A stretch of 46,449 nt of DNA, taken from contig CAZBFB010000037.1 in assembly GCA_964491085.1 (NCBI GenBank), positions 1 to 46,449 of the forward strand. Direction: 5' to 3'. Source of the stretch: an uncultured Gammaproteobacteria bacterium. GTDB taxonomy: Bacteria; Patescibacteriota; Patescibacteriia; CAZBFB01. Under the pieces are notes generated by a model. It was not told where the DNA came from. It saw only the letters and a list, made by a program, of their open reading frames with translations, and searched no databases. The translations under genes and the position numbers were made by a program. Positions 3,030-36,716 of the stretch are shown one piece after another. Numbering within the stretch: the first letter of the stretch is position 1; every line of letters starts with the position of its first letter.

Positions 3030-4145
3030 ATGTTCATTCTCAAGCATAAAAATTTCTTCTTCGCCTTGTCGGGCATACTCGTGGTGGGCGGATTGATTTC
3101 GCTTGCCTGGTTTGGTTTGCCGTATGGGATTGATTTCACCGGCGGCGCGCTGATGGAAGTCCGCTATGCTGGCACCGCACCGAGTGCGCAGGCCGCCGGT
3201 GATGCGTTGAAACCATTTAATCTTGGTGAAGTGAGCGTGCAGTCAACGGATAACAATGGTTTGATTATTCGGTTTAAAGAAGTTGATGAAGATACGCATC
3301 AAAAAATTTCCGCGGCCATGCGCGCCTTGGATACCACCGCGGCGGTCATCGCTCCGGACACAACAAAATCAGTCGTACCAGTACAGTCGCCCCAAGCAAA
3401 AAAACCCGCCATTGGTATTACGGCCACCGACGCGCAAGGTAATGTGATTAATTTGGGTCAGGGCATCACTGTGGAAACGGCTTCGCCAGTGATCAAACCA
3501 GAACAAGTCAGTGTGAGTCAGACCAGTTTTGAAGAATTGCGTTTTGAATCCATTGGTCCGTCGGTCGGCAAAACATTAAAACAGCGCGCCAAGTGGGCAA
3601 TTGTGTTGGCGACCATCCTGATTATTTTGTTTGTCGGTTGGTCATTCCGTCATGTCTCAAAGCCGGTGGCGTCATGGAAATACGGCTTGCTTACGATTGT
3701 GGCTTTGATTCACGATCTGGCCATTCCGATGGGTGTGTTTGCCATTCTCGGGTATTTTGGCAAAGTGGAAATCAGCGCGGCATTCGTGGCGGCCATGCTT
3801 ACTATTCTTGGTTATTCAGTTAACGATACGATTGTAGTGCTTGATCGGGTGCGTGAAAATTTGTTGCGCGATAAAGGCGACACATTCGCCGAAACAGTCG
3901 GCATCAGCTTGGATCAAACTTATCTACGCTCCTTTTTTACGTCGTTTACTACCTTATTGGCTTTAACCGCGGTCTATATTTTTGGCGGTCAAACGATTCA
4001 GCCGTTTGCCTTGGCATTAATTATCGGTATTGCCGCCGGGACGTATTCTAGTATCTTTATCGCCAGTCCGTTGCTGGTGGTGATTGAGGAAGGGCAGAGA
4101 AAGAGTAACTCGTCCGCCTCGGATCGACCGAGTCGAGACGGGTAA
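3030..4145 (+). CDS. secF: protein translocase subunit SecF
   Basis: N-terminal TM helix, GIDFTGG motif, SIGPSVG, and a C-terminal six-TM SecD/F domain (YSVNDTIVVLDR.RE). Lies directly downstream of secD. The periplasmic domain is longer than usual. Confidence 0.92.
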   Translation: MFILKHKNFFFALSGILVVGGLISLAWFGLPYGIDFTGGALMEVRYAGTAPSAQAAGDALKPFNLGEVSVQSTDNNGLIIRFKEVDEDTHQKISAAMRALDTTAAVIAPDTTKSVVPVQSPQAKKPAIGITATDAQGNVINLGQGITVETASPVIKPEQVSVSQTSFEELRFESIGPSVGKTLKQRAKWAIVLATILIILFVGWSFRHVSKPVASWKYGLLTIVALIHDLAIPMGVFAILGYFGKVEISAAFVAAMLTILGYSVNDTIVVLDRVRENLLRDKGDTFAETVGISLDQTYLRSFFTSFTTLLALTAVYIFGGQTIQPFALALIIGIAAGTYSSIFIASPLLVVIEEGQRKSNSSASDRPSRDG

Positions 4146-7042: not shown

Positions 7043-7105
7043 TGTCATCCCAAATTTGATTTGGGATCCAGATTAACTGGATTCCAGGTCAGGCCTGGAA
7101 TGACA
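7043..7105 (+). repeat. 63-bp triple-hairpin repeat, copy 1 of 3
   Basis: tgtcatcccaaatttgatttgggatccagattaactggattccaggtcaggcctggaatgaca. Near-identical copies at 14052-14114 (inverted) and 34336-34398. Lies in the divergent cysS / 7155 spacer. Confidence 0.9.
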
Positions 7106-7654: not shown

Positions 7655-7745
7655 ATTACTACGAAGGTACAAATCTTTACGAAACATACGAATAATTAAT
7701 TAACCCATTCGTACTATTCGCGTCCATTCGTAACTTCGTAGTAAT
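7655..7745 (+). repeat. ~90-bp tacgaa/ttcgta palindromic element, copy 1
   Basis: Terminal inverted repeats attactacgaag / cttcgtagtaat. Roughly 90% identical, by eye, to the reverse complement of 15499-15585. Confidence 0.9.
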
Positions 7746-10376: not shown

Positions 10377-10408
10377 GCTTACTAGCTTACTAGCTTACTA
10401 GCTTACTA
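10377..10408 (+). repeat. 8-bp tandem repeat gcttacta, 4 copies
   Basis: Four exact consecutive copies starting 4 nt after the stop codon of the ATPase gene. Confidence 0.9.
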
Positions 10409-10442
10409 GCTTTTAGGTGCAGTAGGTTTAAAAGCTAGTAAG
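10402..10442 (+). terminator. hairpin, terminator-like
   Basis: 13-bp perfect stem cttactagctttt (10402-10414) / aaaagctagtaag (10430-10442). T-rich tract follows at 10451-10464. Confidence 0.55.
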
Positions 10443-10486
10443 ATATTCCGTTTGCTTTTTTGTTTTGGTTAAACTAAGATATAGCC

Positions 10487-12055: not shown

Positions 12056-12061
12056 AGTAAA

Positions 12062-12155
12062 AAATTTCCAAATCACCAATTTATAAATTTCCAAATAATT
12101 AATCGCTGGAGATGATTTAATTGGTAATTTTATAAATTGGCAATTTGGTAATTTA
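12062..12155. repeat. ccaaat/atttgg hairpin repeat upstream of tRNA-Gln
   Basis: Left arm ccaaatcaccaatttataaa (12068-12087) pairs with tttataaattggcaatttgg (12129-12148). Same low-complexity theme as the insertion at 22501-22629 in rnpB. Confidence 0.75.
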
Positions 12156-12168
12156 TTATCTCCTAAAT

Positions 12169-14051: not shown

Positions 14052-14114
14052 TGTCGTTCCCGGCTTGACCGGGAATCCAGTTAATCTGGATCCCAAATCT
14101 AGTTTGGGATGACA
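14052..14114 (-). repeat. 63-bp triple-hairpin repeat, copy 2 of 3 (inverted)
   Basis: Its reverse complement aligns base for base with 7043-7105 and 34336-34398. Substitutions in the third hairpin are compensatory. Confidence 0.9.
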
Positions 14115-15498: not shown

Positions 15499-15585
15499 AT
15501 TACTACGAAGTTACGAATGGACGCGAATGGTACGAATGGATTAATTATTCGTATGTTTCGTAAGGATTCGTACCTTCGTAGTAAT
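15499..15585 (-). repeat. ~90-bp tacgaa/ttcgta palindromic element, copy 2 (inverted relative to 7655-7745)
   Basis: attactacgaag...cttcgtagtaat. It ends 4 nt before the rmuC ATG. Confidence 0.9.
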
Positions 15586-18296: not shown

Positions 18297-18360
18297 TTCA
18301 TCGCTATGTATAAACGGAATCCGCCACACTGGAAATAATGTCACTAGCCGTTTGATCATA

Positions 18361-18390
18361 TTATTTACATACTATATAGTATGTAAATAA
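18361..18390. repeat. perfect 30-bp AT-rich palindrome between recJ and rdgB
   Basis: ttatttacatactat / atagtatgtaaataa are exact reverse complements. Confidence 0.85.
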
Positions 18391-18440
18391 TATAACTAGT
18401 ATATTTTGAATACAAACATTTAGTGATTACAGGTTCGATT

Positions 18441-22861: not shown

Positions 22862-22945
22862 CGATCCGAACAATCCGAATGATCCCGAATGACCCGAATT
22901 GAATTCAATTTGTGGCATTCGGATGTATTCGGGGTATTCGGATCG
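22862..22945. repeat. 84-nt ccgaat/attcgg hairpin insertion inside rnpB
   Basis: cgatccgaa (22862-22870) pairs with ttcggatcg (22937-22945). The interior is built of ccgaat and attcgg units around gaattcaa. Confidence 0.8.
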
Positions 22946-24837: not shown

Positions 24838-24843
24838 GACGAT

Positions 24844-25012
24844 ACTACGAATATACGAATGAAGTACGAATTTACGAATTTTTCGTCCCGAGGACGATCA
24901 GCCTCTGGCTGAAATCTCACCTTAATTTGCTTTCATTCGTAAATTCGTCTCAATTCGTACATTCGTAGTAATTTTGTACATTCGTAGTAACTATTCGTAC
25001 ATTCGTAGTAAT
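24844..25012 (+). repeat. tacgaat-family composite element with variable core and three gtacattcgtagtaa units
   Basis: The arms actacgaatatacgaatgaagtacgaatttacgaattt ... ttcattcgtaaattcgtctcaattcgta align with 35584-35679. The core has hairpins tcgtcccgaggacga and tcagcctctggctga. Units at 24957, 24976 and 24997. Confidence 0.85.
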
Positions 25013-32379: not shown

Positions 32380-32613
32380 ATGAAAACAATAAAGTTAACC
32401 AACAACGATCGAAAAAAATATTTTAGACAAATTTTTGTCAACCTTGTCTATGACAATATGGCCATGGAGGATGAAGCTATTTTTTCTAAAAAAAATATTG
32501 CTAAACGCTATAAACTGCAAATTGATAATTTGATCAAGGAGGGTGCTCACAAAAAAATCGTCATCCCTCATTCATATTATGTCAAAAACAAAGCCAACCT
32601 ATCGAGAAACTAA
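32380..32613 (+). CDS. small protein upstream of and overlapping the Fic gene; possible FicA-type antitoxin or detached N-terminus
   Basis: 77-aa ORF overlapping the Fic reading frame. It contains NLIKEG, one residue away from the (S/T)xxxE(G/N) Fic-inhibition motif. The region looks AT-rich. Confidence 0.4.
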   Translation: MKTIKLTNNDRKKYFRQIFVNLVYDNMAMEDEAIFSKKNIAKRYKLQIDNLIKEGAHKKIVIPHSYYVKNKANLSRN

Positions 32614-33138
32614 GTTCGGTATTATTTCGGTTGCTGAAATTGAAGCATTAATCACTGACGGTGTTGCCAATGTCAACGCTTTTTTGTTGCGCGAATCTGA
32701 AAATTTACCGATCAGCGTTAAAACAGCCAAAGGATTTCATGAAAAAATTGCCGGGCATATTTTTGGTGATGCGGGAAAGTTTAGAAAGAGCGAAGTAACT
32801 GTCGGAACGTATGAACCGCCATTTTTTTTCAAATTCCAGAATTAATGATCAACTGGGAATCCGATTATAGCGAGCGACACAAACACACAAAAAATCAAGA
32901 TGAACAAATTGAACTTCTGGCTTGGATGATGCATCAATTTTTATTGATCCATCCATTTTTTGATTACAACGGACGTGTTGCCCGCTTACTCGGCCAATTA
33001 TTTCTTCTGCAACACAAATTACCCATCTCCAGTTTCGTGGGTATTAAACCAACAAATTTTACAACTGCCATGAAAAAAGCAACTATCGATCATGATACAA
33101 AAAGCATAGTTACACTGATAAACAAAAGTATTCAATAA
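32579..33138 (+). pseudogene. Fic-domain protein interrupted by a -1 frame change at a T8 run
   Basis: Upstream part ..GFHEKIAGHIFGDAGKFRKSEVTVGTYEPPFFF stops at 32843-32845. The downstream frame continues QIPELMINW... and carries the Fic motif HPFFDYNGRVAR. One extra T in the run 32822-32829 would restore a single ORF. Confidence 0.7.
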
Positions 33139-33156: not shown

Positions 33157-34332
33157 ATGCCCCCAAAAACCTGGGTTGAAATATCCGCATTGGCCCTAAA
33201 ACACAATATCGCCACCATTCGTCGCGTCCTCTCAAACGGGGCGCGGCTTTGTTGTGTGGTTAAGGCGAATGCGTATGGGCACGGGCTTTTGGAAGTCGCA
33301 CAAATTTGCGCTGAAAACGGGGCTGATTGGCTAGGGGTAGATTCCCTTGAAGAAGGGCTAAAACTGCGTCAGAATGGCCTTAAAACGCCAATTTTGGTGC
33401 TTGGGTATACACCATTAGCCAACCTGGGCCTAGCTCAACCTAATGATATCGCTTTGACGGTGTACAATTTTGAAACCATTGACGCTTTGCCGGCCGGCAC
33501 AAAAATTCATATTAAAGTTGAAACCGGTACCAGTCGGCAGGGCGTGCTGATTGAAAATTTAGTTTTATTGGCCAAAAGAGCCGGGGAGCGGGGACTGATT
33601 ATCGAAGGATTGTCCACTCATTTTGCGAACGTTGAAGATGTGTGTGATCCGTCATACGCGCGAGAACAGTTGCAACGATTCAATAACGCGCGCGCCGCAC
33701 TGAAACAGGCGGGCTTTATTGTTCCGATTGCGCACACCGCCTGTTCGGCCGCAATTTTTTTATATCCGAAAACTCATTTTGACATGGTGCGCTTAGGAAT
33801 TTCGTTGTATGGATTATGGTCCGTGTCATTGCGAGGGAGCTCAAGCGACCGCGGCAATCGCATGGCAAACGAACACAGATTGCTTCGCGGAGTTTACCTT
33901 GAGCCCGTCGAATGGGCTCGCAATGACATAAAGCTAAAACCTGTTATCACCTGGAAAACAATTATCGCGCAGATAAAATCTTTACCAGCCGGCACGCCGG
34001 TAAGTTACGGTTTAACGGAACGCGTTGTACGCGATTCAACGGTGGCGATTTTGCCGATCGGGTATTGGGACGGGTATGATCGAAAATTATCTTCGTGCGG
34101 TGAAGTGTTAATTCATGGCAAACGTTGCAAAGTTCTTGGTCGTGTGTGCATGAATATGATTGTTGTCGACGTTACGGCTGTGCCGGACGCAAAACTCGAA
34201 GACGAAGTTGTGCTCTTGGGTTCTCAAGGCGATGATATAATTACCGCCGAAGAACTGGCGAAAAAAATCGGAACGATTAATTATGAAGTCGTGACGAGGA
34301 TTAACCCGTTCATCAAAAGGAGTGTGATCTAA
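33157..34332 (+). CDS. alr: alanine racemase with an in-frame repeat insertion
   Basis: VVKANAYGHG (PLP lysine), the VETGTSRQG region, ISLYGLW, and VSYG...IGYWDGY. Confidence 0.93.
   Translation: MPPKTWVEISALALKHNIATIRRVLSNGARLCCVVKANAYGHGLLEVAQICAENGADWLGVDSLEEGLKLRQNGLKTPILVLGYTPLANLGLAQPNDIALTVYNFETIDALPAGTKIHIKVETGTSRQGVLIENLVLLAKRAGERGLIIEGLSTHFANVEDVCDPSYAREQLQRFNNARAALKQAGFIVPIAHTACSAAIFLYPKTHFDMVRLGISLYGLWSVSLRGSSSDRGNRMANEHRLLRGVYLEPVEWARNDIKLKPVITWKTIIAQIKSLPAGTPVSYGLTERVVRDSTVAILPIGYWDGYDRKLSSCGEVLIHGKRCKVLGRVCMNMIVVDVTAVPDAKLEDEVVLLGSQGDDIITAEELAKKIGTINYEVVTRINPFIKRSVI
33825..33927. repeat. ~103-bp palindromic MITE-like element translated in frame within alr
   Basis: 11-bp perfect terminal inverted repeats gtcattgcgag (33825-33835) / ctcgcaatgac (33917-33927). 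Inner inverted repeat cgcggcaatc / gattgcttcgcg. Confidence 0.8.
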
Positions 34333-34335
34333 TTA

Positions 34336-34398
34336 TATCATCCCAAACTAGATTTGGGATCCAGATTAACTGGATTCCGGGTCAAGCCCGGAATGACA
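34336..34398 (+). repeat. 63-bp triple-hairpin repeat, copy 3 of 3
   Basis: tatcatcccaaactagatttgggatccagattaactggattccgggtcaagcccggaatgaca. Lies in the alr-ddl spacer. Confidence 0.9.
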
Positions 34399-35682: not shown

Positions 35683-36681
35683 ATGGAGCATAAATTTTCC
35701 AAAGGTTATCGCGCGATTCAACGCCAACAAAAGAAACCGTCGCGACGAGGGGTGGCCTTGCCCACGATTCGTTCTCATTCGAGTTCCGGCGGTGGAAAAT
35801 CTGCCATGCCATTTATCACCTTGCCATCGTATCGCAGTACGATCGGCTATTACGAACGCCGCAAAAATCGTTGGCTATTACCGGTAATCACTTCCGGTAT
35901 TTTAATCATGCTACTAGGTCTGGGTTATTTATTGTTTTTGAGTCCGCTTTTTACCTTAACCATCGTTAATGTCGAAGGTACGACGCGCCTTCCGCCAGAT
36001 TTGGTACGCGGCGTCGTGCAAGAACACACCAATCAAACCAAACGCTGGTGGTATCTACCCGGCAATAATTTATTTTTGATTGATGAGTACAATATTCGTC
36101 AACATCTTGAGGCCTGGGTGGATACAAAATCGGTGCGTCTAAAAAAACAATTTCCACACACGCTTATCATCACCATTCAAGAACGCGTGCCGGTGTTGGT
36201 GTGGCAGATCAATGACGAGCGGTTCATGCTTGATGAGGAGGGGATTATCTTAAAAACATTGACAGCGGCGGATTCATTTGATAGATTGATTGCCTGGACG
36301 CAAGCGACCGGCGTGACGGCGCGTACGGGCAAGCTTGGTGATGCGTTGATACCAGCGCCATATGCGCAAGCGTTGACTCAAGCGCTAGCCATGGCCGCGC
36401 AAACCGTTGGCGCGCCGATTATGGTAGTAAATTTTCAATACGGCGATGAACAAAATGTTGTGTTCAAAACCAGCGAGGGTTGGGACATATATTTTTTGTT
36501 AGCGGATTGGCAAAATGCTTTGGCGCGTTTGAAATTATTACTCACGCAGGCCGACGCCCCCAATCGCACTCAACTCGAATACATCGACGTGCGTTATGAA
36601 AACAGAATTTTTACCAAGCAAAAAGAGAAAACAATAAATCAAGAAAACAATAAATCAAGAAAACAAGAAGGGCTGCCCTGA
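35683..36681 (+). CDS. ftsQ: cell division protein FtsQ/DivIB-like (POTRA domain)
   Basis: Basic N-terminus, a single TM helix (LLPVITSGILIMLLGLGYLLFL), then I..V.V.G...L....V (POTRA-like). Lies next to ddl, as in dcw clusters. Confidence 0.75.
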   Translation: MEHKFSKGYRAIQRQQKKPSRRGVALPTIRSHSSSGGGKSAMPFITLPSYRSTIGYYERRKNRWLLPVITSGILIMLLGLGYLLFLSPLFTLTIVNVEGTTRLPPDLVRGVVQEHTNQTKRWWYLPGNNLFLIDEYNIRQHLEAWVDTKSVRLKKQFPHTLIITIQERVPVLVWQINDERFMLDEEGIILKTLTAADSFDRLIAWTQATGVTARTGKLGDALIPAPYAQALTQALAMAAQTVGAPIMVVNFQYGDEQNVVFKTSEGWDIYFLLADWQNALARLKLLLTQADAPNRTQLEYIDVRYENRIFTKQKEKTINQENNKSRKQEGLP

Positions 36682-36716
36682 TAAGATTTTGTTTTCTTGA
36701 TTTATTGATTTTTTGA
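36648..36716 (+). terminator. hairpin plus T run spanning the ftsQ stop codon
   Basis: 17-bp stem caataaatcaagaaaac (36648-36664) / gttttcttgatttattg (36691-36707), followed by attttttg. The left arm is the second copy of a 16-bp tandem repeat (36631-36662). The stop TGA 36679-36681 lies in the loop. Confidence 0.55.

Follow-up and report, generated by a model that had tools for sequence, protein, structure and literature searches.

The alr gene and its in-frame insert

The window analysed here is a 46,449-nt stretch of DNA (contig CAZBFB010000037.1 of assembly GCA_964491085.1, forward strand) from a host of the Patescibacteriota lineage. It contains an alanine racemase gene (alr) whose reading frame runs through a palindromic element. 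Judging from its sequence, this element is an inverted dimer of two repetitive extragenic palindromic (REP) units of a ATTGCGAG...GAAGCAAT family. The host gene, the element and its parts are as follows.

33157..34332, plus strand: alr, alanine racemase coding sequence of 391 aa, an intact open reading frame (ORF) hosting the element
33824..33928, no strand assigned: whole element, 105 nt, two TGTC-tagged REP units in inverted orientation with their tags on the outside (HH dimer), encoding V223–D257
33824..33861, plus strand: left unit (nhmmer match 33824–33860, E 9.7e-6)
33862..33875, no strand assigned: inter-unit spacer ATGGCAAACGAACA, 14 nt as read off the sequence, equivalent to the variable centre of the family
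33876..33928, minus strand: right unit (nhmmer match 33928–33877, E 2e-4)

The segment measures 105 nt from tag to tag, i.e. exactly 35 codons, and its S-L-R...R-N-D frame is stop-free, so that the alr ORF remains open. The reading frame passes through the element as ...WSVSLRGSSSDRGNRMANEHRLLRGVYLEPVEWARNDIKLKPVITWK... (V223–D257, inside ...YGLWSVSLRGSSSDRGNRMANEHRLLRGVYLEPVEWARNDIKLKPVITWK...). Pfam places the Ala_racemase_N domain at residues 10–220 and the Ala_racemase_C domain at residues 263–389 of Alr; the insert thus lies exactly in the inter-domain linker. The original prediction had described an insert of ~103 bp with 11-bp terminal repeats and a nested inner inverted repeat, read through in frame in the linker between the pyridoxal phosphate (PLP) barrel and the C-terminal domain. 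Position, read-through and the inner repeat (CCGCG-GCAATC / GATTGC-TT-CGCGG, with GATTGCTTCGC at 33878–33888) are as it stated. The terminal repeats are also real, but the true size is 105 nt and the repeats are 12 nt long (TGTCATTGCGAG at 33824–33835 and CTCGCAATGACA at 33917–33928), 100% complementary and 81 nt apart.

The left unit consists of a TGTC tag (33824–33827), a stem base ATTGC (33828–33832) paired with GCAAT (33854–33858), a purine-rich internal loop (GAGGGA / GACCGCG) around a small hairpin (GC-TCAA-GC), and a CGC tail. On the minus strand, the right unit reads TGTC-ATTGC-GAG-[CCCATTCGACGGG hairpin]-CTCAAGGTAAACTCCGCGAA-GCAAT-CTG. It is of a different '...TAAACTCCGCGAAGCAAT' subtype, also present at four other loci (L058, L074, L101 and L115), which makes the alr dimer a heterodimer. 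The flanks of the element (CCG/TGTC...GACA/TAA, with slashes at its ends) have no direct repeat.

The insert in the context of other Alr proteins

We compared the window Alr with its best 119 homologues, all Patescibacteria-type Alr proteins with 51–65% identity. As proposed earlier, the segment is foreign to Alr: it is missing from nearly all of these homologues, in nearly all of which the spacing from YGLW to L(K/E)P is 16–17 residues. Inserts of 8–25 residues occur in the same loop among other homologues. When PDB sequences are searched with phmmer, the query Alr is split at 221/255; against the 33 residues of the query at this point, only 5 in the chain of the best solved structure (4y2w) stay unaligned. 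A protein search with the 40-aa insert peptide was uninformative, as it gave no candidate with three 5-residue words in common.

As expected, the linker is short in other Alr enzymes, with ~12 residues between W and L in the closest homologue (P0002, 65% identity), but the lineage of the window and P0002 has only ~3 residues when the element is left out. Excising 33824–33928 in silico gives TGG TCC GTA AAG CTA (W-S-V-K-L), so that the repeat makes up nearly the whole linker in this lineage. The P0002 linker itself seems to have been lengthened from a similarly short one by a 7-codon tandem duplication (NLKPNTY-NLKP). Its interpretation as a decayed REP (TCCATTGCC compared with GTCATTGCG) was rejected, as the unit profile described below has no match in its contig (L001).

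An AlphaFold2 model of the window Alr, built with 74 homologues, has a mean predicted local distance difference test (pLDDT) score of 85.6 and a single long low stretch (residues 224–253, pLDDT <50), with both domains packed at high confidence on either side. With the low scores confined to these residues, the model predicts that the insert forms a disordered loop between two domains that pack well, in line with the extruded loop that had been suggested as a point to check. All 57 invariant columns of the 74-sequence alignment, including K36 and Y284, are kept in the window Alr, and on this basis the gene looks functional.

Inactivation or crippling of Alr, either as a young pseudogene or because the enzyme is dispensable where D-alanine is obtained otherwise, would be in keeping with the replacement of almost the entire linker by the element and with the visibly broken state of the neighbouring Fic gene. 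Patescibacteria are, moreover, host-dependent and lose biosynthetic genes. We nevertheless consider this improbable, given that the 391-codon ORF is intact and retains every alignment-invariant residue, that the model keeps the two domains together, that other Alr homologues tolerate inserts at the same loop, and that ddl directly downstream, as well as PBP2 and ftsQ in the region, are all intact.

The repeat family across genomes

One genome per GTDB species was scanned with the pattern TCATTGCGAG-N65-95-CTCGCAATGA, which returned at least 120 loci, compared with ~17 matches estimated by chance for the whole genome collection under uniform composition. Hosts among the listed loci belong to a dozen or more phyla and include Alpha-, Beta- and Gammaproteobacteria, Bacteroidota, Chloroflexota, Desulfobacterota, Planctomycetota, Bacillota, Patescibacteria (L012, L030, L040 and L108), Ignavibacteriota, Campylobacterota, Atribacterota, Omnitrophota, Nitrospirota and others. 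Dimers of the ATTGCGAG type are also found in a Rickettsiaceae genome (Tisiphia; L041 and L078).

The 127 listed dimers have a common architecture: tag-TCATTGCGAG-[variable hairpin]-GAAGCAATC-[centre]-GATTGCTTCG-[variable hairpin]-CTCGCAATGA-tag. The first half comprises a tag beginning with CG or TG, TCATTGCGAG, a variable hairpin and (C)GAAGCAATC(C), followed by the variable centre, and the second half mirrors the first. An inner GCAATC-like motif, which the search pattern does not demand, is present in 234 of the 254 half-units. The tags are CGTC at 57% and TGTC at 36% of the ends, in agreement with the published description of CGTC REPs (PMC3733652), and the consensus end is GCAATCC(A/C), with CCC in sibling copies. 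The suspected intergenic tcattgcgag...ctcgcaatga class of repeats is therefore borne out, with at least 120 genome loci and an inner architecture that goes beyond the pattern used to find them. A literature search for the literal TCATTGCGAG returned primer sequences only.

A hidden Markov model (HMM) of the unit was built from 198 half-units of other genomes, none from the window. It matches the window exactly twice, in inverted orientation, at the two units listed above, while all its other scores there are no better than E ~4. Because the model owes nothing to the window, we regard the match of both halves as decisive evidence beyond a chance palindrome, and at the sequence level it identifies the insert as an inverted dimer of the ATTGCGAG...GAAGCAAT family. 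Furthermore, a 29-mer taken from the left unit, where its sequence is idiosyncratic, has exact matches in three other metagenome contigs (L125, L126 and L127). These have a 36–41-nt unit in common with the window and nothing else, with 36 nt identical, and the sites are intergenic. In L126 the matching unit forms the left half of another dimer, 96 nt long, which lies upstream of a putative pseudouridine synthase gene, so named by eye. L125 and L127 have it as a lone unit, flanked by two ORFs that, again by eye, presumably encode transporter components. Copies within a genome are more alike than copies from different genomes (L012, L011/L022).

These matches bear directly on whether the segment could be an ancestral or lineage-specific Alr loop that is palindromic by chance, or an assembly artefact. 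The window holds one copy of the subtype, and the bare terminal 11-mer has 2 matches there against 0.9 expected, which is not significant alone. Such an origin is barely credible, since the family HMM recognises both halves, the 36-nt unit recurs unchanged in unrelated contexts, homologues lack the insert, and on either side alr sequence continues without a break in a single frame. Searches of the window for the motifs CGCAATGAC, GATTGCTTCGC and GGAATGAC gave counts at chance level, and the sites at 3641 and 30748 proved to be unremarkable coding sequence.

Viral contigs of IMG/VR have the dimer pattern as well, in 74 stretches (L128–L201), some of which may be prophage host flanks.

In-frame copies elsewhere and the Alr linker as a recurrent site

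Among the listed dimers, 18 of 127 are flanked on either side by at least 60 open codons, and four are clearly inside genes, as Pfam domains or recognisable host coding sequence flank them on both sides.

L025: in-frame dimer in uvrA
L069: in-frame dimer in an ELP3-like radical-SAM gene
L108: in-frame dimer in ychF of a Candidatus Daviesbacteria genome
L101: in-frame dimer in a Wzy_C gene

The ...RND exit frame of the alr copy is also used by three of these four. The length is divisible by 3 in ~35% of the listed dimers, and 36–47% are stop-free in any given frame. About 1 in 7 insertions would thus keep a gene open, and selection at permissive sites is a sufficient explanation for the in-frame copies.

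The Alr loop has received other inserts. In P0075 (55% identity) a single CGTC unit, ACGTCATTGCGAGAGAGTAGCACGAACGAAGCAATCCC, is read as TSLRESSTNEAIP in the same loop (L002 1034–1071, HMM E 3.4e-7). In P0069 (L123) an unrelated C/G-run palindrome in this loop is read as PPYSPLKIRGEIGGV, and the YGLW-to-TWK segment of ~135 nt that contains it folds at −48.6 kcal/mol. P0020 (L124) and several others carry non-palindromic inserts at the same loop, that of P0020 being AT-rich. The linker between the two Alr domains is thus a permissive site that has been used repeatedly, with independent hits in no fewer than three lineages (the window, P0075 and P0069).

The Wzy_C (O-antigen ligase-like) ORF at L101 1270–2826 contains, in addition to its in-frame ATTGCGAG-type dimer, two 'PLKRG...EGxGGV' palindromes like the one in P0069.

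Comparison with known palindromic repeats

CGTC-tagged REPs were defined by Di Nocera, De Gregorio & Rocco (2013, BMC Genomics 14:522; PMC3733652). According to the available text of that paper, they have a CGTC tag (often TGTC or CCTC), stems of 8–9 bp starting from A-T pairs, loops of 4–5 nt and a CCA tail. They form mostly HH dimers with a spacer of 1–100 bp, occur in several phyla and are reported there without an associated transposase. The same text equates the Rickettsia palindromic elements (RPEs) RPE-6 and RPE-4 of R. conorii with the families CGTC-1 and CGTC-4, and lists in-frame intragenic copies, many in repair genes, with uvrA among the housekeeping hosts (PMC3733652).

The alr element resembles these REPs in its tag (TGTC at 33824–33827, with the complement GACA at 33925–33928), in unit stems that start with A-T and T-A pairs (ATTGC/GCAAT), and in its HH arrangement with outermost tags and a 14-nt spacer; the family consensus, moreover, has a CCA(G) tail. 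At the family level, the spread over distant phyla, the lack of a known dedicated transposase and the in-frame copies in housekeeping genes, including uvrA, are shared as well. In addition, the CGTC-3 peptides quoted in the source (VIAGLDPAIH; PMC3733652) imply a stem ATTGCCGGG/CCCGGCAAT with the same ATTGC/GCAAT base as the alr units. The element therefore fits the CGTC/TGTC superfamily in its tag, in the A-T start of its stems and in its HH layout, while its stem and loop depart from the published metrics and its tails are degenerate. By their description in the available text, it cannot be assigned to any of the four published families. Unlike the cases given in that text, it lies in a host of the phylum Patescibacteria and in the host gene alr. 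Three intergenic dimers of the window, listed further below, agree with all the CGTC REP metrics that the same text provides.

Likeness to Rickettsia palindromic elements, suggested earlier as a resemblance, turns out to be literal insofar as the published equivalence of RPE-6/RPE-4 with CGTC-1/CGTC-4 applies (PMC3733652, available text). RPE-4 and RPE-6 are in-frame palindromes in essential genes, read through as extra surface peptides, and the alr element is likewise an in-frame insertion in a conserved gene whose ORF is left intact. The RC0378 dimer of R. conorii is read as SFLRKQESS...DSRFRRND in the quoted text (PMC3733652), in the same S...RND frame as the alr element. The unit subtype and the phylum differ, and the link depends on that published equivalence. 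RPE-1, a longer and unrelated palindrome, shows a looser likeness. An in-frame palindromic repeat in an essential gene is thus a real but already-described kind of event.

Two other systems are instructive. In REPINs, i.e. REP dimers associated with the transposase RAYT (TnpA-REP), two inverted units also form one long hairpin without target duplication, hairpin features suggest an ssDNA (single-stranded DNA) substrate, and copies within a genome are more alike. They differ from the alr element in their GTAG-type tags and in having a RAYT gene flanked by its own REPs; RAYT is absent from the 30 window ORFs scanned and is not recurrent near the 120 listed loci. In-frame bacterial MITEs (miniature transposable elements with inverted repeats; Correia and Nezha type) are also small, non-autonomous, bounded by terminal inverted repeats and occasionally translated. 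In contrast to the alr element, they make target-site duplications and derive from identifiable insertion sequences (ISs). The term 'MITE-like' used initially is therefore loose: as neither a target-site duplication nor a parent IS is present, 'REP dimer (REPIN-like)' is the better label.

Unit anatomy and mobility

Across the family, the unit stem base is 5 bp (ATTGC/GCAAT) and is followed by conserved purine-rich flanks, with 5'-GA opposite 3'-GAA in 23 units and 5'-GAGGA opposite 3'-GACGAA in 12 units. We read these flanks as tandem sheared G.A pairs. The hairpin that they enclose varies freely in sequence and length while complementarity is kept (stems of at least 5 bp in 54 of 229 units vs 7 of 229 shuffled). 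GNA sequences account for 34 of the 59 triloops; the GCGAAGC DNA mini-hairpin, which has a GNA loop, is very stable. No flanking direct repeat is present in 117 of the 127 listed dimers, and units also occur singly (L002 and L125). Insertion into pre-existing hairpins was considered and rejected: the palindrome has no extension beyond the tags in 79 of the 127 dimers, and an extension of at least 3 bp in only 9.

The GNA loops and G.A flanks, together with the lack of flanking repeats and of palindrome extension, favour an ssDNA hairpin element. These features fit such an element better than a transposon defined by terminal inverted repeats and target-site duplications. A classical MITE, i.e. 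a deletion derivative of an IS moved by a DDE transposase via its terminal inverted repeats, would match the perfect 12-nt repeats, the small size and the many copies across genomes. It is nonetheless highly unlikely here, because direct repeats are lacking at the alr copy as well as in most listed members, and because transposition that depends on terminal inverted repeats does not explain single units. Nor is a transposase recurrent near the 120 listed loci or found among the 30 window ORFs scanned. A XerC/D-type recombinase is encoded 4 kb from the element. Near the listed loci, the largest ORF cluster spans 11 loci; the N-terminus of its longest member is hydrophobic and resembles that of a membrane protein.

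The stability of the palindrome as RNA raises a different explanation. As RNA, the alr segment is predicted to fold at −51.5 kcal/mol (z −4.6), with none of 200 shuffles equally good, and as ssDNA at −26.5 kcal/mol (z −3.9). A hairpin of ~−51 kcal/mol placed exactly at the Alr domain boundary could be an mRNA processing or stability site or a translational pause, or it could be excised, in which case the peptide would be incidental or never made. Many REPs are argued, in the available text of the CGTC REP study, to be transcribed and to act as RNA elements (PMC3733652). We think such a role improbable for several reasons. At gathering thresholds, Rfam finds only a tRNA in the whole window, and a scan at E<=10 around the alr element gives no match on it. 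The segment has no recognisable motif for cleavage or splicing. Its length, divisible by 3, and its stop-free frame are required by a translated insert and needless for an excised one. Finally, the GNA triloops and 5'-GA/GA-3' flanks point to DNA hairpins.

Proposed origin of the Alr linker

Taken together, our results suggest that the insert is most probably a translated, tolerated selfish element which has come to serve as the linker between the domains of a functional Alr. What the repeat is, where and in which frame it lies, its absence from nearly all homologues and the integrity of the host gene are observed; translation and neutrality we infer from structure prediction and from comparable RPE and REP inserts reported for Rickettsia and other bacteria. 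A selfish, non-autonomous palindromic HH dimer of CGTC/TGTC-tagged ATTGCGAG...GAAGCAAT units would have landed between the PLP barrel and the C-terminal beta domain. It would be transcribed and translated along with alr, so that the enzyme gains a hydrophilic and disordered loop of 35 residues at its surface. Such an insertion would persist since the site tolerates it, and not through any function of the peptide. The family itself may have spread by means of an unlinked enzyme acting in trans on ssDNA hairpins, a mechanism suggested by the GNA triloops, the tandem G.A motifs and the lack of both target duplication and a linked gene. To our knowledge, no mobilising enzyme is known for CGTC-type REPs.

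Several results weigh against this account. The alr units have a 5-bp Watson–Crick stem followed by a G.A-rich internal loop (GA/GAA or GAGGA/GACGAA) and a hairpin of variable length, unlike the stems of 8–9 bp and loops of 4–5 nt of CGTC REPs, and their tails are CGC (left) and CTG (right), not CCA. A second copy of the alr-element subtype was not found in the 46-kb window by either the 11-mer count or the unit HMM; the condition set earlier for refutation, a genome free of further copies, is however countered in part by three canonical dimers of the superfamily in the window and by the identical 36-nt unit in other metagenome contigs. An all-against-all BLASTP comparison of 3,329 ORFs around the 120 listed loci, whose clusters were not annotated, revealed no recurrent mobile-element gene. 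An empty site was not found in a near relative; the nearest Alr in the protein database is only 65% identical, and the event cannot be dated. In addition, native linker residues may have been lost after insertion, or the element may now be structurally needed, and 'neutral' may be too simple a description.

The 10-mers of the ATTGCGAG unit are nearly invariant over the dozen or more bacterial phyla of the listed loci, and the 5-bp stem, the tandem G.A loop and the GNA-loop hairpin look like the recognition module of a widely shared ssDNA enzyme. It is conceivable, though we hold it with considerable doubt, that the ATTGCGAG...GAAGCAAT unit represents a distinct, undescribed pan-bacterial branch of CGTC REPs with an ssDNA-acting partner enzyme.

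On the same tentative reading, this unit and other palindromes would time and again have reshaped proteins at permissive loops in Patescibacteria, whose genomes are small, and here the repeat would have become the linker itself. If the proposed origin is true, the alr insert adds the Candidate Phyla Radiation to the range of in-gene selfish palindromes, which have been described chiefly in Rickettsia and a small number of Proteobacteria. Annotation should accordingly label segments of this kind as derived from repeats and not as lineage-specific protein features. The wider question concerns the mobiliser of CGTC-type REPs and the cause of their core conservation across phyla. The alr case alone gives no advance on it, but the family data (i.e. 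unit architecture, no target duplication, no linked gene and viral contigs) sharpen the question of how these repeats are mobilised.

Other repeats and genes in the window

A strict scan of the window (tag plus a perfect stem of at least 7 bp starting with AT and a loop of 3–8 nt) revealed four canonical REP units, against 0.035 expected. Each joined to its partner, the units make up three HH heterodimers of 63 nt that follow one design, TGTC-ATCCCAAA-loop-TTTGGGAT-CCAG-ATTAA-CTGG-ATTCCNGG-loop-CCNGGAAT-GACA, with stems of 8–9 bp, loops of 3–5 nt and CCAG tails. The host genome thus carries the TGTC REP superfamily.

34336..34398, no strand assigned: 63-nt TGTC/TATC-tagged REP dimer in the alr–ddl spacer, starting 4 nt past the alr stop, with stems of 8 bp and loops of 5 nt (ssDNA −17.3 kcal/mol, z −5.7)
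7043..7105, no strand assigned: 63-nt REP dimer, intergenic (ssDNA z −5.3)
14052..14114, no strand assigned: 63-nt REP dimer, intergenic, in the opposite orientation (ssDNA z −6.0)

As ssDNA, each of these dimers folds at −17 to −18 kcal/mol (z −5.3 to −6.0). The predicted fold is a closed, cloverleaf-like structure of three hairpins, in which the CCAG/CTGG tails pair across the ATTAA spacer.

A second repeat family consists of long intergenic hairpins at gene ends (7655–7745, 15499–15585, 24843–25010 and also 22862–22945). Short 'TACGAAT'-like (or 'CCGAAT') motifs are arrayed along the arms of these hairpins, which have the ends ATTACTACGAAG...CTTCGTAGTAAT in common. Further intergenic palindromes (12058–12158, 36628–36716, 10378–10445, 552–591 and 18358–18393) are built of short tandem units (AATTTCCAAAT, AAACAATAAATCAAG and TAGCTTAC) or are perfect palindromes of 18–20 nt. 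Several lie between convergent or consecutive genes and may be terminators.

The surroundings of alr are a housekeeping region. Upstream are PBP2, greA, a class II aminoacyl-tRNA synthetase gene, a cytidylyltransferase gene, a NUDIX gene, serS and the broken Fic gene; downstream are ddl, ftsQ, era, the XerC/D-type recombinase gene, a Nramp transporter gene, an M23 peptidase gene, gltX and wecG. The Fic/DOC-family gene (32380–33138, between serS and alr) is split into three overlapping frames of 77, 100 and 97 aa, and only the last ORF (97 aa) matches Pfam Fic. In two other Patescibacteria contigs (L123 and L124), serS directly adjoins alr. On L001, the contig with the closest Alr homologue, alr is preceded upstream by a gene (458–2845) for a 795-aa protein with two tandem D-Ala-D-Ala ligase units, in which Dala_Dala_lig_N and Dala_Dala_lig_C each occur twice.

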